Below are positions 18,729-46,457 of a DNA stretch of 64,000 nt, piece after piece. The notes under the pieces were generated by a model that saw only the letters and a list, made by a program, of their open reading frames with translations, searched no databases and had not been told where the DNA came from. The translations under genes and the position numbers were made by a program. Position 1 is the first letter of the stretch. The number at the start of each line of letters is the position of its first letter. Source of the DNA: Mustelus asterias. Lineage: Eukaryota. The stretch spans positions 13,702,001-13,766,000 of the forward strand of contig NC_135830.1 in assembly GCF_964213995.1 (NCBI RefSeq). Reading direction: 5' to 3'.

Positions 18729-18974
18729 TGGTTTTCTTTGCTCAAGCCGATGATGGGTTTGCTCAAGGATATTTTATTTAAAATTCTCAGCAAGCGGAAT
18801 TTTAAACACTGAGTAAGTTTCAGAAAATTGCACTGCAATCACATTGCAGATGATGCAGCGAATGACCCTCCTGGTGTCATTGCATCTGTCCAGAGGACGA
18901 CTGCTCAAGAATACAAAACGCTCAGACACAGAATCCCTACAGTGCGGTCGGGAGCCACTCGGCCCATCGAGCAG

Positions 18975-20900
18975 AGAACATAGAACACAGAACAGTACAG
19001 CACAGAACAGGCCCTTCGGCCCACGAAGTTGTGCCGAGCTTTATCTGAAACCAAGATCAAGCTATCCCACTCCCTGTCATCCTGGTGTGCTCCATGTGCC
19101 TATCCGATAACCGCTAAAATGTACCTAAAGTTTCTGACTCCACTATCACTGCAGGCAGTCCATTCCACACCTTAACCACTCTCTGAGTAAAGAACCTACC
19201 TCGGGCATCCTTCCTATATCTCCCACCATGAACACTATAGTTATGCCCCCTTGTAGTAGCTCCATCCACCCGAGAAAATAGTCTTCGAACGTTCACTCTA
19301 TCTATCCCCTTCATCATTTTATAAACCTCTATTAAGTCTCCCCTCAACCTCCTCCGCTCCAGAGAGAACAGCCCTCGCTCCCTGAACCTTTCCTCATAAG
19401 ACCTACCCTCAAAACCAGGCACCATGCTGGTAAATCTCCTTTGCACTCTTTCCAGCGCTTCCACATCCTTCTTATAGTGAGGTGACCAGAACTGCACACA
19501 ATATTCCAAATGTGGTCTCACCAAGGTCCTGTACAGTTGCAGCATAACCCCACGGCTCTTAAACTCCAAACCCCTGTTAATAAAAGCTGACACACTGTAG
19601 GCCTTCTTCAAAGCTCTATCCACTTGAGCGGCAACCTTCAGAGATCTGTGGATGTGGACCCCAAGATCTCTCTGTTCCTCCACAGTCTTTGGAACCCTAC
19701 CTTTCACCCTGTAATCCACATTTAAATTTGTCCTACCAAAATGAATCACCTCACATTTATCAGGGTTAAACTCCATCTGCCATTTTTCAGCCCAGCTTTG
19801 CATCCTATCTATGTCTCTTTGCAGTCTACAAGAGCCCTCCACCTCATCCACTACTCCACCAGTCTTCGTGTCATCAGTAAATTTACTGATCCACCCTTCA
19901 GCCCCCTCCTCTCGGTCATTAATAAAAATCACAAATAGCAGAGGACCAAGCACTGATCCCTGCGGCACTCCGCTAGCAACCTGCCTCCAGTCCGAAAATT
20001 TTCCATCCACCACCACCCTCTGTCTTCGATCAGATAGCCAGTTACCTATCCAATCGGCCAACTTTGCCTCTATCCCACATCTCCTTACTTTCATCATAAG
20101 CCGACGATGGGGGACCTTATCAAGCACCTTACGAAAATCCATGTATATGACATCAACTGCCCTACCTCCATCAACACACTTAGTTACGTTCTCAAAAAAT
20201 TCTATCAAATTTGTGAGGCACGACTTGCCCTTCACGAATCTGTGCTGACTATCCGGATTAATCCGCATCTTTCTAAATGTTCGTAAATCCCATCCCTAAG
20301 GACCTTTTCCATCAACTCACCAACCACCGAAGTAAGACTTACCGGCCTATAATTACCAGAGTCATTTGTATTCCCTTTCTTAAACAGAGGAACAACATTC
20401 GCCACTCTCCAGTCCTCTGGCACCATCCCCGTGGACAGTGAGGACCCAAAGATCAAAGCCAAAGGCTCTGCAATCTCATCCCTTGCCTCCCAAAGAATCC
20501 TAGGATGTATTTCATCAGGCCCAGGGGACTTATCGACCTTCAGTTTATTCAAAACTGCTAGTACATCCTCCCTCCAAACATCTACTTCCTCCAGCCTATT
20601 AGCCTGTAACACCTTCTCTTCCTTAAAAACATGGCCCCTCTCCTTAGTGAACACTGAAGAAAAGTATTCATTCATCACCTCTCCTCTCTCTACTGACTCC
20701 ATTCACAATTTTCCACTACTGTTCTTGACTGGCCCTAACCTCACCCTGGTCATTCTTTTATTCCTCACATAAGAGTAAAAAGCCTTGGGGTTTTCCTTGA
20801 TCAGACCTGCCAAGGACTTCTTATGCCCCCTCCTAGCTCTCCTGAGCCCCTTTTTCAGCTCATTCCTTGCTAACTTGTAACCCTCAATCGAGCCATCTGA
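18975..20900 (-). mobile_element. 5'-truncated CR1 with near-intact RT, inserted within a SINE
   Basis: ORFs 19114-20268 and 20232-20702 (one frameshift) carry GVPQGSVLGP and KFTDDT; tail at about 18976. Confidence 0.95.
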
Positions 20901-21655: not shown

Positions 21656-21728
21656 AGGCTCCACCGAGATTTAAACTCAGATCATTGGATTCAAAGTCTA
21701 GAGTGCTAACCGTTGCACCACAGAGACC
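21656..21728 (-). pseudogene. tRNA-Gln(TTG) pseudogene
   Basis: GGTGCAACGGTTAGCACTCTAGACTTTGAATCCAATGATCTGAGTTTAAATCTCGGTGGAGCCT. Confidence 0.75.
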
Positions 21729-22764: not shown

Positions 22765-22836
22765 AGGTTTTGTTAAGATTTGAACTCGGATCGCTGGATT
22801 CAGAGTACAGAGTGCTCACCTTTACACCACGGAACC
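22765..22836 (-). pseudogene. tRNA-Gln(CTG) pseudogene
   Basis: GGTTCCGTGGTGTAAAGGTGAGCACTCTGTACTCTGAATCCAGCGATCCGAGTTCAAATC; 3' acceptor strand damaged. Confidence 0.8.
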
Positions 22837-23984: not shown

Positions 23985-24236
23985 TACCAAAAGATAAAAT
24001 GCTGGAAAATCTCAGCAGGTCTGGCAGCATCTGCAAGGAGGGGAAAAGAGCTAATGTTTCGAGTCCAGATGACACTTTGTCAAAGCTGACATTTCTAACT
24101 GAACTTTGACAAAGGGCCATCTGGACTCGAAACGTCAGCTCTCTGTCTCTCCTTACAGATGTTGCCAGACCTGCTGAGATTTTTCAGCATTTTCCCTTTT
24201 GGTTTTAGATTCCATCATTCGCAGTAATTTGCTTTT
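23985..24236. mobile_element. Palindromic non-autonomous Penelope-type element with 11-bp TSD
   Basis: About 100-bp inverted arms; ATCCCCAAGGT at 23974-23984 and 24237-24247. Confidence 0.8.
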
Positions 24237-25011: not shown

Positions 25012-25086
25012 GTGTTTGTGTACTGAAGTGCTTATCAAATTCGCCTCACACGCGAAAAGTCCCTGGTTCAAAACCGGGCAGGAGCA
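25012..25086 (+). pseudogene. tRNA-Val(CAC) pseudogene
   Basis: TTCGCCTCACACGCGAAAAGTCCCTGGTTCAAAACCGGGC. Confidence 0.75.
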
Positions 25087-31127: not shown

Positions 31128-31199
31128 TTCCCTGACCGGGAATCGAACCCGGGCCGCGGCGGTGAAAGCGCCAAATCCTAACCACTAGACCACCAGGGA
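31128..31199 (-). tRNA. tRNA-Glu(TTC), intact
   Basis: TCCCTGGTGGTCTAGTGGTTAGGATTTGGCGCTTTCACCGCCGCGGCCCGGGTTCGATTCCCGGTCAGGGAA; full cloverleaf, TTTT terminator downstream. Confidence 0.95.
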
Positions 31200-32923: not shown

Positions 32924-33005
32924 TGGCAGCAGTGGGATTCGAACACACGCCTTCGCAGAGACTGGAGTCTTAATCCAGCGCCTTAGACCGCTCGGCCACG
33001 CTACC
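32924..33005 (-). tRNA. tRNA-Leu(AAG), slightly degenerate
   Basis: GGTAGCGTGGCCGAGCGGTCTAAGGCGCTGGATTAAGACTCCAG...GTGTGTTCGAATCCCACTGCTGCCA; one T-stem mismatch. Confidence 0.85.
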
Positions 33006-33985
33006 ACGTTAAGCAGCATCGCAATCATGTTATTTAATGATAATGTTGCTGAAATTCATTAAAAGCAATTTAGCTTGGAAAGGCCATCAGGAAGCATGAG
33101 CCTGCTCCTTCACTGATTCAGGTAATTCTGAACTGCGTAACAAACAGAAATCATCTCACGCCAGAAACACAATGAGCTGCAGTGAAGGGCCGGCATCATT
33201 TAAACTGTCCTTAAGCTCGTCTCTTCCCAATTTCCTGCCAGAAATGACAAGGGAACCTCCTGTTGAATTTGCTCAGGGTCTGCACTTAAGGACACGAGGC
33301 GAAATTATGTTTTGTATCTTCATCCAGGCAATAACTCACATTTATTTTCAGAGTTTGGATGTGAGCAATAAATCTTCAATTCCAGACCAGTAATCTGAAC
33401 AGCAGGGAAAGAGTCAAACACACCAGACCAGCAATTTACAACCTGTTTTAGAATTTAATTTATCCACGCTGCTTTTCTTCCTTTAATTTTCACGCCACGT
33501 TCGCCACAAACAGCTTTCTCCTGAAAAATGGCGCCTTCTGTTTCAATGCCAGTGATGTGTAATTAATGAAAGCTCCAACAAGGTGAGACTTCTTACTGTG
33601 TTTACCCCAGTCCAACGCCGGCATCTCCACATCAGGAAATACAGTCTCACTGTTTGTAATCCTGTTATTTATATCATGATGTAAAGATGTCGGCGTTGGA
33701 CTGGAGTGGGTACAGTAACAATTCTCACAACACCAGGTTAAAGTCGAACAAGTTTATTTGTAATTACCAGCTTTCAAGAGCACTGCTCCTTCATCAGGTT
33801 GTTTAACTCGGCAGTCAGAAATGCAGCCTCTGTGTGCTCTCGAAAGGAGCCACTTACACACACGCTGCTTTACCCCAGCAACGTTTCAAGTTGGTAATGT
33901 CTCTGCTCGTTATTCCTGACGAAAACGACACCACACACACTCCTGCATTCAATCCGAGCTGTTAGACCAAAACTTAAACCCACGT

Positions 33986-34080
33986 TGGCAGCGGTGGGAT
34001 TCGAACCCACGCCTCCGCAGAGACTGGAGCCTTAATCCGGAGCCTTAATCCAGCGCCTTAGACCGCTCAGCCACGCTACC
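33986..34080 (-). tRNA. tRNA-Leu(AAG) with 13-nt tandem duplication in the anticodon arm (intron-like, 34030-34042)
   Basis: ...CTGGATTAAGG[CTCCGGATTAAGG]CTCCAG...; acceptor stem, T arm, A/B boxes and TTTT terminator intact. Confidence 0.85.
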
Positions 34081-34106
34081 GCGTTAAACCACATCGCAAT
34101 CATGTT

Positions 34107-34439
34107 TTGTTTTTTTAATACTTTTCCAATTCAATCAAATCAAATCCATTTCAGAGTCTCAACAAGTTGAGACATTTCAGATCCCGGCTGACAAGACAGG
34201 GCGAGCGACCAAAATCACCCTGTCCTGGGCCTGATCTACATGAGCCAAGCTGATTGGAGAAGGGGGGGGGGTGTTCCTCCTCCAAGACTTGAGTTTATTT
34301 GCATCTTAGCCCAAAGGCCGAGATGCCGCTTTTAAAAATTGCTTCATATGAAACATATGAAGCTTCAGTGTAACCTAATGACCTCAACCAAGTGCAGCAT
34401 CCAATCCATACGACACTAGATCTTAGCCAAAAGGCCGAA
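34107..34439 (-). mobile_element. U2 snRNA-headed short retroposon (SINEU-like)
   Basis: 5' TCGGCCTTTTGGCTAAGATCTAGTGTCGTAT matches the U2 5' end; second U2 piece at 34303-34323; A-rich tail; TSD AATCATGTT at 34098-34106 and 34440-34448; absent from the paralog at about 33020. Confidence 0.85.
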
Positions 34440-35629
34440 AATCATGTTATTTAATGATAATGTTCCTGAAATTCATTAAAAGCAATGGAGCTGGGAAAGG
34501 CCATCAGGAAGCATGAGCCTGCTCCTTCCCTGATTCAGGTAAGTCTGAACTGCGCAGCAAACAGAAATCATCTCACGTCAGAAACACAATGAGCTGCAGT
34601 GAAGGGCCGGCATCATTTAAACTGTCCTTAAGCTCGTCTCTTCCCAATTTCCAGCCAGAAATGACAAGAGAACCTCCTGTTGAATTTGCTCAGGGTCTTC
34701 ACTTAAGGACCATATTATGTTTTATATCTTCATCCAGGCAATAACTCACATTTGTTTTCAGAGTTTGGATGGGAGCAATAAGTCTCCAATTCCAGGCCAG
34801 TAATCTAAACAGCAGGGAAAGAGTCAAACTCTAACCACCAGACCAGCAGCTTATAGGGTGTTTTAGAATTTAATTTATCCCCGCTGCTTTTCTTCCTTTA
34901 ATTTTCACGCCAGACCACTTTCACCACAAACAGCTTTCTCCTGCAAAATGGCACCTTCTGCTTCAACACCATGATGTGTTCAGCCAATGACAACATACCA
35001 CGAACACTCCAGTGCAATTATCACTTTCGCTTCCGACGGTTCGAAACCGGACAGAAACGTTTCCAAATGCTTTTCAGTGGAGAGTGAGGGAAAAGTTTCA
35101 TTATTCAGTGTCAATATAAACAGCAAAATCTGACCCATTACCAGACAGATTTTACCTTGCAGCAACATCTCAATCGTGAGTACTTTGCAGCCTATCACTG
35201 CCCTTTTTCTGTGTTTGTTCTTGAACTGTGCACAGGTGAAATTTCCAGCTCTGATATAAACTTGCAAACCTCACTCGGCTGATTCTAATAGATCTGTTTT
35301 CGATCAGAGAGCAAATCAGATCATTATTAATGGTTTGCTGAGAGCAAATACTCTTATTTTCCTCAGCGGGAATTGAAACCAGACATCACTGGGGGAGTGC
35401 TGAACATGAACCATTGGACTGCCAGGGAAACCGGTGAACAGTGTTCTTCAAACTGACTTAACATATATCCCTTTGCTTCTATTTTCATCTCAGATCCTTT
35501 TCACTTGTGACACGTTTCTCCTTCAAAATGTCCTGTTTGGATGGAATATGATTGCCTCCTTCAGCTAATGACAACACGGATTGAGCTGGGTCATGGAATT
35601 GACAGTGAGGTGATATGGTCCCACAAGCT

Positions 35630-36473: not shown

Positions 36474-36564
36474 CGATGGTTGGTCTAAGGGCACGATTCC
36501 CGCTTTGGGTGTCAAAATCCGCATGACTGTGAAAGGCCTCCCCGGTTCAAATCCCAGACCACCT
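36474..36564 (+). pseudogene. tRNA-Pro(TGG) pseudogene with 18-nt intron
   Basis: GTTGGTCTAAGGGCACGATTCCCGCTTTGGG[TGTCAAAATCCGCATGAC]TGTGAAAGG...GGTTCAAATCCC. Confidence 0.75.
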
Positions 36565-37111
36565 CTTGCTTTGTAATGGATAAGTCGTGGAGTTTGTTCG
36601 TTTATTTCCCGTGACATGGCGAAATTGGCTCAGATGGGTATGATTTGAGAACCTGAGCACGCTCTGCAAGTCTTCTGTTAGCACAACACACACAGAGAAT
36701 CCAGATATTTTCAAAAGGTGACAATGCTTGCGGACATTCACTTAATCCTTATTTACTCATCCAGATGACCCCATGCTTGTGGGTTCAGACAGCTATTTTG
36801 TGTATATTGGGTTGTGGATGTCTGCCCCACTCTCTGTCCCTCTCTGTCTCTTTTTGTCACTGGAGACCTGTCTCAGACTCTTTCACTCTCTCAGTCTCTC
36901 TGTCTGTGCATCGATCACTGTTCCCTCTTCTGCTCTTTGCTCCCTCTATTCTCTCGCTGTCTATGTTTAACCAACGTTCACTGGATTTGATCCTGTGATG
37001 AGGCGGTTGTCCTGCAAATGGTCACTCAGAGCATTTGACCCACTTGCCGTCACTGCCACATTGAATGAAAAAGGCTTTGAGTGACCATTTGCATCTGACG
37101 GCTCTGTTGCT

Positions 37112-37183: not shown

Positions 37184-37833
37184 TGTTGTTTTTTGCTCAA
37201 GCCGATGATGGGTTTTTTGAAGAGCATTTAATTTTAAATTCTCAGAAAGTGGAAATATAAACATTGAGGAAATTTCAGCAAATTCCACCGCAGTCAATTG
37301 CAGATGTTGCAGCGAAAGACTCTCCTGGCATCATTGCATCAGCCCCAGAGAACGATTGCTCAAGAATACAAAGCGCTGAGAGGCAGGGAAGCCACAGTGA
37401 GCATGGGGTCCACCTACAGGAGTCATTCACACAGTTATTTGTCCCAATTTTAAAAAAAGAGATTGGAGGCGAGAGGCCAGAGTGCGAACCGTTACACCAT
37501 GGAATAGACAGCATTCTGACCGAAGACACTAGATTTTTCTCCCAAAACACACACACGTATCAAGTCTCTCTCTCTCTCTCTCTCAGAAACACACACACAC
37601 ATTTGCTTAATCATTCCCAGACTCCAGTCGAATTGTTATTGCGTGACACCAATTGCTTCTTCCTTTCAACAGAGGAGTTAAAGAGTTGTCGAAAAGATGA
37701 AAAACACTGACATTGCAGGCATCTGGCGCCAGAGGCTCAGCAATGTGCATTGTAATCGCAGTTCGTACTTCGTGAGAAAATTAAGGAAATGCCCTTCAGC
37801 AAATCAATCTTCAGCATTTGGCAAAGGAAGGCG

Positions 37834-37905
37834 AAGCCCCACCGACATTTGAACTCGGATCGCTGGATTTAGAGTCCAGAGAGCTCACCGTTACACCACG
37901 GGACC
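37834..37905 (-). tRNA. tRNA-Gln-derived gene with CTA (amber) anticodon, probably a pseudogene
   Basis: GGTCCCGTGGTGTAACGGTGAGCTCTCTGGACT-CTA-AATCCAGCGATCCGAGTTCAAATGTCGGTGGGGCTT; C61G mismatch. Confidence 0.75.
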
Positions 37906-39375: not shown

Positions 39376-41193
39376 GGCTGATGCATATTCCTTAAAACAT
39401 TAATTTATCCAGGAACCATCTGTCTTCTATTTTTATTTCAGACTTTTTATTCACCCAAAACAAGTTTCTCCTTGAAATTGTCATGTTTAGATCGAACACA
39501 AGTGAGTGCATCAGCCAATGAGCAGAGCGATTCCTGTTCGCTGGAACATGAAATCGACAGTGAGGTGAAATAGTCCCGCAAGCTGCTCATGTGGCACTTT
39601 CAGTTTCCAAAACCCACCAAACTCATCACTGTGGCTTCTGTGAAACTTGCAAGGTAACACACGGCAGGCATTAATCACGGAGAGCAACTGACACAAGTCA
39701 TTTGCTAAACACTATCATGTCGCTTCTCTTCCTGTTTCTGTCGCTGCTTCTCATCCAGCTCCCTCTGGCCGGTCAGCTCCCAGGGTCAATTAGCTGCTTG
39801 ATACAGACACAGACCGTTGGTGACAACGAGTTTTACCTGGAAAACAGAGTGTAAGACACACGGTGTTGAGAGGAGATGGTGTTTAGAAATGACAGTATAA
39901 AGAGACACAGATATATCATCTTCCTGATCCTCCCAGTTACTGATTACAGGAATGTACATAGTGCCAATTATCCACTGTCACCCTCTCCTTCCAGCCTTCA
40001 GCACGGAGTTACGTTTTGAAGTGTTTGAAGTCTTGCTACCGTTGTTCAGGGTTTTGTTGAGACCACATTTGGAATAGTGTGTGCAGTTTGGGTCTCCACA
40101 TTTCAGACAGAATGAAAGCAAAAATAATGAGGATGCTGGAAACTAAATCAAAAACAGCAAATGCCGCAAAATAACAACAGGTTTTCCAGCATCTGTGGAG
40201 AGAGGGTAACGTCAACGTTTTGAATGACGATGACACTTCGTCAGTGTAGGCTATACATTTATCGGAGTCGGTACAGCGAAGCTTCACTAGATTCTTCTCT
40301 GGGATGAGGGTGTATCCCTCAACGTCAGGGACCCGTGTTCAATTCCGGTCTCGTGTGACTGTTTGTGTGAAGTTTGCACGTTTTCCCCTTGTCTGTGCAT
40401 TTACTTCTGGCTCCGCTTTCCTGCCACGGTCCAAAGATCTGTGGGTTCGGTGGATTGGCCATGCTAAATTGCCTCTCAGTGTCAGAGGGACGAGCAAGGT
40501 GAATGTGTGGTTTGACGGGGATATAGTGTTGTTGGGATTGTTATTGGCATAGGCTTGGTGTACTGCAGGGATTCTCTGATTCTACGAGTTTGAAGGGTGG
40601 ATGCTGAGATAATATTCTCCTTGGTCCGGGAATCTAAAACACGGGATACAATCTCACGATAAGGCGCTGATGATTTAGGTCTGAGGTGAGGAGAAATTGA
40701 ATCACTCAAACGAGAGCGAATCTTCGGAATTCTCTACGCCAGAGGCTTGTAGATGTTCCATCATTGAACACATTTCAGTCTGGGTTTGGCAGATTTCTGA
40801 TCTCTCCAACAATGACTGGGAACAGGAATATGGAATTGGAACAAATGCTCAGCCACAAATTACTGCTTCTATTCTAATTGTTAAGCTTAACAGTATAATG
40901 GATACATGTATATGTTATATGTAATATATTTGAAATCAAAAGTCATTAAATAACGTTGGCAACACCACAGCCGGTAACTTCAGAGATAATTTTTATGAGC
41001 GTCCACGGACCCATTGCCAACTGTTTGCGTTTGAATGCTGATGTGAGAAAACACTAAGAGCTCCGTCCCTGTGTGGTCTCGAACCACAAACATAGAACAT
41101 AGAACATAGAACATAGAACATTACAGCGCAGAACAGGCCCTTCGGCCCACGATGTTGCACCGACCAGTTAAAAAAAAACTGTGACCCTCCAAC

Positions 41194-44013
41194 CTAAACC
41201 AATTTCTTTTCGTCCATGAACCTATCTACGGATCTCTTAAACGCCCCCAAACTAGGCGCATTTACTACTGATGCTGGCAGGGCATTCCAATCCCTCACCA
41301 CCCTCTGGGTAAAGAACCTACCCCTGACATCGGTTCTATAACTACCCCCCCTCAATTTAAAGCCATGCCCCCTCGTGCTGGATTTCTCCATCAGAGGAAA
41401 AAGGCTATCACTATCCACCCTATCTAAACCTCTAATCATCTTATATGTTTCAATAAGATCCCCTCTTAGCCGCCGCCTTTCCAGCGAAAACAATCCCAAA
41501 TCCCTCAGCCTCTCCTCATAGGATCTCCCCTCCATACCAGGCAACATCCTGGTAAACCTCCTCTGCACCCTCTCCAAAGCCTCCACATCCTTCCTGTAAT
41601 GTGGGGACCAGAACTGCACACAGTACTCCAAGTGCGGCCGCACCAGAGTTGTGTACAGTTGCATCATAACGCTACGACTCCTAAATTCAATCCCCCTACC
41701 AATAAACGCCAAGACACCATATGCCTTCTTAACAACCTTATCTACTTGATTCCCAACTTTCAGGGATCTATGCACACATACACCTAGATCCCTCTGCTCC
41801 TCCACACTATTCAAAGTCCTCCCGTTAGCCCTATACTCAACACATCTGTTATTCCTACCAAAGTGAATTACCTCACACTTCTCCGCATTAAACTCCATCC
41901 GCCACCTCTCGGCCCAACTTTGCAACCTGTCTAAGTCTTCCTGCAAACTACGACACCCTTCCTCACTGTCTACCACACCACCGACTTTGGTGTCATCAGC
42001 AAATTTGCTAATCCACCCAACTATACCCTCATCCAGATCATTAATAAATATTACAAACAGCAGTGGCCCCAAAACAGATCCCTGAGGTACACCACTTGTA
42101 ACCGCACTCCATGATGAATATTTACTATCAACCACCACCCTCTGTTTCCTATCCGCTAGCCAATTCCTGATCCAATTTCCTAGATCACCCCCAATCCCAT
42201 ACATCTGCATTTTCTGCAGAAGCCTACCATGGTGAACCTTATCAAACGCCTTACTAAAATCCATATATACCACGTCCACTGCCTTGCCCCCATCCACCTC
42301 CTTGGTCACTTTCTCAAAAAACTCAATAAGGTTAGTAAGGCACGACCTACCTGCCACAAAACCATGCTGACTATCACCTATCAATTCATTACTCTCCAAA
42401 TAACTATAAATCCTATCCCTTATAATTTTTTCCAACATCTTGCCGACAACAGAAGTGAGACTCACCGGTCTATAATTCCCGGGGAAGTCTCTGTTCCCCT
42501 TCTTAAACAATGGGACAACATTCGCTAACCTCCAATCTTCTGGTACTATACCAGAGGCCAACGACGACCTGAAGATCAGAGCCAGAGGCTCTGCAATCAC
42601 TTCTCTTGCCTCCCAGAGAATCCTTGGATAAATCCCATCCGGACCAGGGGATTTATCTATTTTCAGACCCTCCAGAATATCCTGCACATCCTCCTTATCA
42701 ACTGTAATACTGTCTATTCTACTCCCTTGCAACCCAGTGTCCTCCTCAGCTATATTCATGTCCCCTTGCGTGAACACCGAAGAGAAATATTGGTTCAATG
42801 CTTCACCAATCTCCTCCGGTTCCACACATAACTTCCCTCTGCCATCTATAACTGGCCCTAAACTTGCCCTAACCAACCTTCTGTTCTTGACATACCTATA
42901 GAACGCCTTAGGATTCTCTTTAACCCTATCCGCCAAAGTCTTCTCATGTCCCCTTTTAGCCCTTCTAAGCTCGCTCTTCAACTCCCTCTTAGCTAATCTA
43001 AAGCTTTCTAGTGCACTACCCGAGTGCTCACGTCTCATCCGAACATAAGCCTCCTTTTTCTTTTTAACCAACAAAGAAACTTTTTTGGTGCACCACGGTT
43101 CCCTAGCCCTACCAATTCCTCCTTGCCTGACAGGGACATACCTATCACAGACTCGCAGTAGCTGCTCCTTGAAAAAACTCCACATGTCGGACGTTCCCAG
43201 TCCCTGTAATCTCCTAGTCCAACCTATGTTTCCTAATTCTCTCCTAATAGCCTCATAATTACCCTTCCCCCAGCTAAAACCACTGGCCCGAGGTTCATGC
43301 CTATCCCTTTCCATCACTAAGGTGAACGTAACCGAATTGTGGTCACTATCACCAAAATGCACACCAACTTCCAAGTCTAGCACCTGGTCTGGCTCATTTC
43401 CCAGCACCAGATCCAATATAGCCTCACCTCTAGTTGGCCTGTCTACATACTGAGTCAAAAAACCTTCCTGCACGCTTTGAACAAAAACTGACCCCTCTAA
43501 CGAGCTAGAGCTATAACAATTCCAGTCAATATTAGTCAAGTTAAAATCCCCCATATCAATTGCCCTATTACTTTCACTCCTAAGCAGGATTGACTCCGCA
43601 ATCCTTTCCTCAACCTCTCTAGAACTTTTAGGAGGTCTATAAAAGACTCCCAACAGGGTGACCTCTCCTCTCCTATTTCTAATCTCCGCCCATACTACCT
43701 CAACAGATAAGTCCTCATCAAACCTCCTCTCTGACACTGTGATACAATCTCTGACCAATAATGCTACCCCTCCCCCTCTTCTACCTCCTTCCCTACTTCG
43801 ACTAAAACATTTGAACCCCGGGACCTGCAGCATCCATTCCTGCCCCTGCTCTATCCATGTCTCTGAAATAGCCACAACATCGAAGTCCCAGGTACTGATC
43901 CACGCTGCAAGTTCACCCACTTTATTGCGAATACTCCTGGCATTGAAGTATACACATTTCAAACCCTGCTCCACCCCACCTCTGCAATGCCGTGCATTGC
44001 AGTCCCCATCCAT
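41194..44013 (-). CDS. CR1 ORF2 (APE endonuclease + reverse transcriptase), 939 aa
   Basis: YFNARS, ISETW, GDFN and SDH endonuclease motifs; GVPQGSVLGP and FADD RT motifs. Confidence 0.97.
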   Translation of the reverse strand: MDGDCNARHCRGGVEQGLKCVYFNARSIRNKVGELAAWISTWDFDVVAISETWIEQGQEWMLQVPGFKCFSRSREGGRRGGGVALLVRDCITVSERRFDEDLSVEVVWAEIRNRRGEVTLLGVFYRPPKSSREVEERIAESILLRSESNRAIDMGDFNLTNIDWNCYSSSSLEGSVFVQSVQEGFLTQYVDRPTRGEAILDLVLGNEPDQVLDLEVGVHFGDSDHNSVTFTLVMERDRHEPRASGFSWGKGNYEAIRRELGNIGWTRRLQGLGTSDMWSFFKEQLLRVCDRYVPVRQGGIGRAREPWCTKKVSLLVKKKKEAYVRMRREHSGSALESFRLAKRELKSELRRAKRGHEKTLADRVKENPKAFYRYVKNRRLVRASLGPVIDGRGKLCVEPEEIGEALNQYFSSVFTQGDMNIAEEDTGLQGSRIDSITVDKEDVQDILEGLKIDKSPGPDGIYPRILWEAREVIAEPLALIFRSSLASGIVPEDWRLANVVPLFKKGNRDFPGNYRPVSLTSVVGKMLEKIIRDRIYSYLESNELIGDSQHGFVAGRSCLTNLIEFFEKVTKEVDGGKAVDVVYMDFSKAFDKVHHGRLLQKMQMYGIGGDLGNWIRNWLADRKQRVVVDSKYSSWSAVTSGVPQGSVLGPLLFVIFINDLDEGIVGWISKFADDTKVGGVVDSEEGCRSLQEDLDRLQSWAERWRMEFNAEKCEVIHFGRNNRCVEYRANGRTLNSVEEQRDLGVCVHRSLKVGNQVDKVVKKAYGVLAFIGRGIEFRSRSVMMQLYTTLVRPHLEYCVQFWSPHYRKDVEALERVQRRFTRMLPGMEGRSYEERLRDLGLFSLERRRLRGDLIETYKMIRGLDRVDSDSLFPLMEKSSTRGHGFKLRGGSYRTDVRGRFFTQRVVRDWNALPASVVNAPSLGAFKRSVDRFMDEKKLV

Positions 44014-46362: not shown

Positions 46363-46457
46363 GCTCCAGTGGCGCAATCGGTTAGCGTGTGGTATTTATA
46401 CAGCAGTACAGCCAGCGGGCGATGCCGGGGTTGTGAGTTCGAACCTCACCCGAGGCA
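46363..46457 (+). tRNA. tRNA-Ile(TAT) with intron 46401-46421; acceptor mismatches suggest a pseudogene
   Basis: GCTCCAGTGGCGCAATCGGTTAGCGTGTGGTATTTATA[cagcagtacagccagcgggcg]ATGCCGGGGTTGTGAGTTCGAACCTCACC. Confidence 0.85.

Follow-up and report, generated by a model that had tools for sequence, protein, structure and literature searches.

A tandem duplication with tRNA intron geometry in a tRNA-Leu(AAG) gene of Mustelus asterias

How a tRNA gene might acquire an intron is the question raised by the locus described here. Intron gain at position 37/38 has been called hard to imagine, with the question left open (PMC4090602), and no tRNA intron gain was seen among primate orthologue clusters (PMC4981973). 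We analyzed a window of 64,000 nucleotides of M. asterias DNA (contig NC_135830.1, positions 13,702,001 to 13,766,000), within which a tRNA-Leu(AAG) gene has part of its anticodon arm in duplicate.

A duplicated anticodon arm

The gene and its parts are located as follows.

33986-34080, minus strand: tRNA-Leu(AAG) gene copy, 95 nt with the duplication included (ARAGORN; Rfam RF00005, 50.3 bits; stem check)
34039-34051, minus strand: copy 1 of the 13-nt unit (tRNA positions 29-41), which includes the anticodon at 34046-34044 (repeat finding)
34026-34038, minus strand: copy 2 of the 13-nt unit, exact (repeat finding)
34030-34042, minus strand: formal 13-nt intron at 37/38, predicted only (geometry and excision comparison)
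34032, minus strand: intron base -3 (copied A35), potential partner of U32 at 34048 (geometry)
34069, minus strand: C12U, a substitution at a CpG site (comparison with an intact copy)
34063-34073, minus strand: A box of the internal Pol III promoter (sequence)
33997-34007, minus strand: B box, identical to that of intact copies (sequence comparison)
33969-33972, minus strand: four-T run, terminator-like, at +14, positioned as in intact array copies

tRNA positions 29-41 are present twice, exactly and head to tail (TRF, period 13; script). An initial annotation of this DNA had described a 13-nt tandem duplication of the anticodon arm equivalent to an insertion between positions 37 and 38, and TRF, a script, and excision all bear this out in the assembly. 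When 13 nt are excised after position 37, the resulting 82-nt gene equals an intact copy (L018) with C12U as the sole difference, so the C12U change named in the same annotation is present as well. This substitution converts the 12:23 pair of the D stem into a U-G wobble and eliminates the ac4C12 site (C12 in a CCG motif), a modification that only one of 26 characterized Leu tRNAs lacks (PMC10275265). Each of the four stems (acceptor, D, variable, and T) is able to pair (stem check), and the promoter boxes, the T4 run, and a pairable cloverleaf are intact. The A box fits the consensus.

The duplication is not a chance match. Its pattern has one match in the 3.68-Gb genome, whereas the unduplicated 28-base anticodon arm has 65 exact matches. 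Only two other insertions, each of 1 nt, were found in Leu AAG/UAG anticodon arms, and no further duplication-born inserts were found in these arms. An exact tandem duplication of at least 6 bases is present in one of 147 non-SINE ARAGORN calls, namely the 33986-34080 gene itself; this set covers contiguous stretches totaling 1.06 Mb together with 50 loci, which were partly selected for Pro and Leu genes and overlap to some degree. The insert is therefore not common to most isodecoder genes, which is the usual pattern of tRNA introns (PMC4090602, PMC10275265). Singleton status excludes only an established intron, as a newborn intron would be expected to be single.

A single occurrence in the assembly (5313 contigs) would also be seen if the second copy were an artefact of assembly or consensus that is absent from the animal. 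Public runs provide no evidence either way: when the 901 bases around the gene are split into words, the best run contains a fraction of 0.29 of these, and none reach half (20 contig-only runs listed). However, the locus lies inside a 20.4-Mb contig, the assembly separates paralogous loci that are 99.85% identical, and alignment of the neighboring 2.9 kb to sister loci shows only indels of an ordinary kind, another 13-base one among these. We consider an artefact to be very improbable.

Intron geometry and predicted folding

In the duplicated gene, the stretch U32-U33-A34-A35 is complementary to intron positions -3 to -6; pairing of the two would yield a 4-bp helix and a 3-nt bulge at the 3' junction, with U32:A(-3) as the proximal, or anticodon-intron (A-I), pair. 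The geometry thus bears out a proposal of the initial annotation, in which this stretch pairs with the copied UUAA. That annotation also saw a match to the canonical intron position, A-I pair, and 3' bulge, in agreement with the structure of human pre-tRNA-Arg(UCU) on TSEN, where a helix of four pairs begins at C32 and is accompanied by a 3-nt bulge (PMC10539383). Only the proximal pair is conserved; TSEN mostly recognizes the tRNA body, which is measured as a ruler (PMC10485636).

These features could reflect a newborn, working intron. A Pol III transcript would be drawn into the intron register by tertiary contacts and TSEN binding, TSEN34 and TSEN2 would cut both ends, and RTCB would ligate the products into a usable tRNA-Leu(AAG) with U12. 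A geometry equal to that of the human substrate (PMC10539383) and recognition mainly through the tRNA body (PMC10485636) favor this possibility, as do the intact promoter and terminator, the presence of only one substitution, and the splicing of a Leu(CAA) reporter that has a long variable arm (PMC6614914). C12U itself and the existence of only a single copy speak against it, and on all the evidence given here and below we judge a working intron to be unlikely.

The geometry follows from the duplication and is no second, independent coincidence. When a duplication extends across positions 32-38, the copy of base 35 is placed at -3, that of base 34 at -4, that of base 33 at -5, and that of base 32 at -6. 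Since positions 32-35 are self-complementary and the duplication spans 32-38, intron geometry arises arithmetically. Among 784 distinct duplications of 10-25 bases of the Leu gene, 224 produce formal 37/38 introns, 210 produce the proximal pair, and 155 produce the full helix. Because 155 of the 784 yield the full geometry, the fit is no evidence of selection or function. By the same arithmetic, the proposed mechanism would be general for tRNAs with self-complementary positions 32-35.

The A-I helix of the duplicated gene has a ddG of -0.6 kcal/mol, compared with -2.5 to +4.5 kcal/mol for 21 native Pro introns of this genome, and this native-like stability is another point in favor of a working intron. 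In a fly reporter, a U-A proximal pair lowered splicing and a U-G pair nearly abolished it (PMC6614914); both pairs are frequent in the Pro introns of this genome.

A feature missed by the initial annotation is that copy 1 alone can close a full 5-bp anticodon stem (with one U-G wobble), which shifts 13 bases into the variable region and leaves nothing at the splice position. This first-hairpin fold is predicted to be likelier at 37°C. When the acceptor, D, and T stems are fixed at this temperature, the predicted probability of the first-hairpin register is 0.33, that of the intron register is 0.06, and that of the intron register plus the whole A-I helix is 0.01. Fixing the variable arm as well gives 0.32, 0.14, and 0.02, respectively. 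The best first-hairpin and best intron-register folds are separated by 1.2-1.9 kcal/mol at 37°C. The order of the registers depends on temperature: when the variable arm is fixed too, the probabilities of the intron register and the first hairpin are 0.16 versus 0.13 at 20°C, and 0.14 versus 0.05 at 10°C, in a model that describes secondary structure without tertiary contacts. Competition between anticodon-stem registers therefore argues against a working intron, whereas the competitiveness of the intron register at 10-20°C argues for one.

Native Pro precursors provide a standard for comparison. The stem around the intron has a median predicted probability of 0.97 and a minimum of 0.69 in the 25 precursors whose acceptor and T stems pair completely, from 41 intron-bearing Pro genes; the corresponding value for unduplicated Leu is 0.52. 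A-I pairing is predicted to be low in native precursors also, with a median of 0.04 versus 0.011 in duplicated Leu. Cleavage is irreversible, so even a minor fold can in principle be drained. In yeast, a disturbed exon-intron structure leads to pre-tRNA decay (PMC6913130). Folding without constraints was set aside since its minimum-energy folds are not cloverleaves (z of -0.82 for the gene and -1.50 for its paralog).

The first hairpin could also form the normal 5-bp anticodon arm of an RNA that is never spliced, in which the variable region takes up the 13 bases and the ends of a 95-nt tRNA-like molecule are processed. This register is the likeliest of the named registers at 37°C, has five pairs, and is the one used by the Infernal alignment of the gene, and some predicted folds pair the extra bases with the variable arm. 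However, up to 12 unpaired bases would occupy the core junction, the lead of the first hairpin vanishes at lower temperature, and aminoacylation of such a molecule seems doubtful. An unspliced variant of this kind is quite improbable.

Native tRNA introns in the genome

Introns at the same position are found in other tRNA genes of this genome, and the window itself holds an example. Genes and gene remnants of intron-bearing types in the window are as follows.

13180-13269, plus strand: tRNA-Pro(UGG) gene with an 18-nt insert at 37/38
974-1064, plus strand: decayed tRNA-Pro copy
36474-36565, plus strand: decayed tRNA-Pro copy
46363-46457, plus strand: decayed tRNA-Ile(UAU), with a 21-nt intron as is usual for it; another copy, ∼28 kb ahead of the window, looks intact

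Further tRNA copies in the window (Gln, Val, and Glu) are mostly degenerate: 21656-21727, 22765-22836, and 37834-37905 (minus strand), 25014-25086 (plus strand), and 31128-31199 (minus strand). The "Pyl(CUA)" gene that ARAGORN calls at 37833 is a Gln-type copy within a local segmental duplication.

Genome-wide, there are 173 Pro matches; 91 among the 100 listed have inserts of 13-18 nt at 37/38, and exact matches to an intron-less Pro gene number 9. The inserts are present in tRNA-Pro genes with all three anticodons. In 41 distinct Pro introns, base -4 pairs with U33 in every case and base -3 pairs with U32 in 36. Base -5 follows base 34 in 14 of 17 AGG, 15 of 17 UGG-type, and 3 of 7 CGG introns. 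From their sequences, the Pro inserts look like maintained TSEN introns, with the caution that related copies are not independent. Five of the 41 distinct introns are 13 nt long, as is the Leu insert, and all five have U32:A(-3). That such introns are native to the genome favors a working intron in the Leu gene.

No signature of duplication is evident in the Pro introns. When 39 of the 41 distinct Pro introns were compared with column shuffles in four groups (a 17-nt AGG intron and a copy with a UGA anticodon fell outside), there was no excess of exon matches outside positions -6 to -3 (p=0.20, 0.35, 0.83, and 0.76). At -6 to -3, AGG introns often carry a self-copy wobble pattern; this amounts to one ancestral event and is at most a weak hint of an origin by duplication. 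By eye, no duplication-born insert was evident among the 100 listed of the 173 Pro matches or among 59 Arg(UCG) matches. A general duplication route for tRNA introns has no support yet.

The Arg(UCG) matches represent one tRNA subtype (G000 C85 and related contigs, L165-L184 and L221-L224). Of these, 58 of 59 contain introns, with G at -3 opposite C32. Because a copied C35 would be no partner for C32, the duplication route does not account for the Arg(UCG) introns. Many of them hold a trinucleotide microsatellite that varies in length and resembles the exon junction, for which slippage is a possible origin.

The human tRNA intron families are Tyr(GUA), Ile(UAU), Arg(UCU), and Leu(CAA) (PMC10275265, PMC12168002), and Pro is outside these four. 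No paper on Pro introns in sharks was found in the searchable literature, which offers partial coverage. These additional families, Pro and Arg(UCG), may prove more significant than the Leu singleton.

History of the copy and comparison with known systems

The duplicated gene has a tandem paralog on one side and a SINE on the other.

32924-33005, minus strand: tandem paralog tRNA-Leu(AAG), unduplicated, with four substitutions including G37A and a T-stem mismatch (ARAGORN, Rfam, comparison)
34107-34439, minus strand: U2-snRNA-headed SINE of 333 bases, 27 bases upstream of the gene
34098-34106 and 34440-34448: 9-bp target-site duplication that flanks the SINE

The SINE has two U2 5' fragments as its head and an A-rich tail. 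Copies are ∼95%-96% identical (2350 first-look candidates, 40 scored), and most of 20 copies have target-site duplications. SINEU has been reported solely from crocodilians (PMC4494074). HE1-type SINEs, which suggest a shark, are present as well. A habit of targeting tRNAs is unsupported for this SINE: the best 20 copies have unrelated flanks, three sister loci excepted. Other repeats in the window include a self-inverted 220-base stretch (23986-24203), a 97% identical inverted pair of 169 bases (58856-59024/59927-59759), and an old 1.9-kb direct repeat (18965-20873 with 41091-42996), all of which are probably mobile-element remnants.

Insertion of the SINE displaces the ancestral 5' flank of the duplicated gene, which weighs against a working intron. 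Two sister loci (C108 and C437) share the same SINE insertion, lack the duplication, retain C12, and have a 9-nt deletion in the T arm. Since they share the SINE without the duplication, the duplication postdates the segmental copy. The flanks of the locus and its sister differ at 82 of 2417 sites, and the gene pair has 7 differences from the sister pair over 155 sites, compared with 5.3 expected from the flanks. All changes after the split are private, and all four gene lineages bear a lesion. Thus both genes equaled the reference until the split, and lesions have since accumulated at about the rate of the flanks. That the gene pair changes at the flank rate and that the sister copies are dead count further against a working intron.

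The initial annotation held that the duplicated gene is better preserved than its paralog. The direction of this claim is correct (one substitution versus four) but the difference is not significant (two-sided binomial p=0.375). Taking good preservation as a sign of function is not justified: the duplicated gene alone differs from its sister copy at 1 of 73 sites, within the neutral expectation of 2.5 (P=0.29). This count neither demonstrates nor excludes selection on the gene.

Lesions are found in the wider family as well. Ten of 41 Leu copies compared equal the reference, in a set from which copies with flanks shorter than 300 bases or a mismatch to the search motif were dropped and in which many copies were picked as best hits. 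In other copies of the Leu array (L053, L054, L028, L026/L027), 1 nt is inserted in the anticodon loop, 2 nt are inserted at the anticodon stem, or 9 nt are missing from the 3' end, which is ordinary family birth-and-death. Elsewhere, a locus with three Leu genes (L151, G000 C21:8133388-8135388; two AAG and one UAG-type) has CpG-rich flanks and early T-runs, and its genes differ from the array type in the variable arm. It is likely a core, somatically active Leu cluster, as suggested by these characteristics. The observed/expected CpG ratio is 0.61 in the flank of the duplicated gene, 0.59 in the window, and 0.83-0.98 for the three genes of the C21 locus. Ratios are just as low in intact array copies (0.45-0.69), so CpG content does not set the duplicated copy apart.

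The locus therefore presents a unique, recent, and exact duplication with intron geometry in a redundant gene copy. The explanation we favor, with some reservation, is a neutral lesion in a redundant, decaying array copy rather than a working intron. The duplication would have arisen after the segmental duplication, probably by hairpin-assisted slippage or by nick repair at the anticodon hairpin. The ends of the unit are complementary, as is true of 20 of 1048 possible units, although this is a post hoc observation and the 13-mer alone is not stably folded as DNA. An abortive retroposon insertion was also considered as the source, without evidence. If made, a transcript is predicted to distribute among several folds: first hairpin, second hairpin, base-pairing to the variable arm, and the intron register. 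Only molecules in the last of these, a minority, would be cleaved by TSEN, and the small amount of tRNA produced would lack ac4C12 and have a weakened D stem. The remaining transcript would likely be degraded, and with dozens of intact copies present selection would not act on the effect. For the animal, the copy is probably of little importance.

A separate matter is whether a tandem duplication across the anticodon loop can create a TSEN-spliceable intron in one step. Accurate TSEN cleavage of a supplied Leu(AAG) precursor is a tenable prospect, though we would put it somewhat below an even chance; use of the intron in the animal is unlikely. If the one-step route is real, this gene would be a natural newborn tRNA intron and would point to a means of gain wherever base 32 pairs with base 35 (e.g., Leu-AAG and Pro). 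About one in five short duplications of the Leu gene generates full intron geometry, and the locus thus offers a simple rule together with a natural substrate. It is a plausible natural model for one-step intron birth. No paper that proposes an origin of tRNA introns by duplication was found in the searchable literature, which leaves most subscription journals outside its coverage, and the available portions of three papers (PMC13578239, PMC8450103, PMC3293823) contain nothing on this route.

Compared with known TSEN introns, the Leu insert has the same 37/38 site, 32:-3 pair, 4-bp helix, and 3-nt bulge (PMC10539383, PMC10485636). It differs in being an exact copy of exon sequence, hence the competing anticodon-stem registers. 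Unlike the human TSEN substrate, its proximal pair is U-A and not C-G, and it is a single copy with no family.

A precedent for the general principle comes from spliceosomal introns, for which gain by tandem or segmental duplication was described in vertebrate ATP2A1, with function demonstrated in cells (Hellsten et al. 2011, PMC3265369). As in that case, duplication over a potential junction creates in one step a removable insert whose removal restores the product. In the Leu gene, by contrast, the enzyme would be TSEN and the signal would be structure, and the case is a genomic observation where ATP2A1 is a functional one.

Intron gains in yeast tRNA genes (Lachancea thermotolerans Ala-UGC and Kluyveromyces lactis Gly-UCC) similarly place an intron-like insert at 37/38 of a normally intron-less isodecoder (Yoshihisa 2014, PMC4090602). 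Those gains are present in several genes, and the process proposed for them is cleavage, extension, and reverse transcription rather than duplication of DNA. Within its own genome, the Leu copy resembles other decaying array copies in carrying private indels and substitutions, which elsewhere in the array include 9-nt deletions, a 2-nt insertion, and 1-nt loop insertions. Unlike these other lesions, the Leu duplication alone is formally removable by the tRNA splicing machinery.
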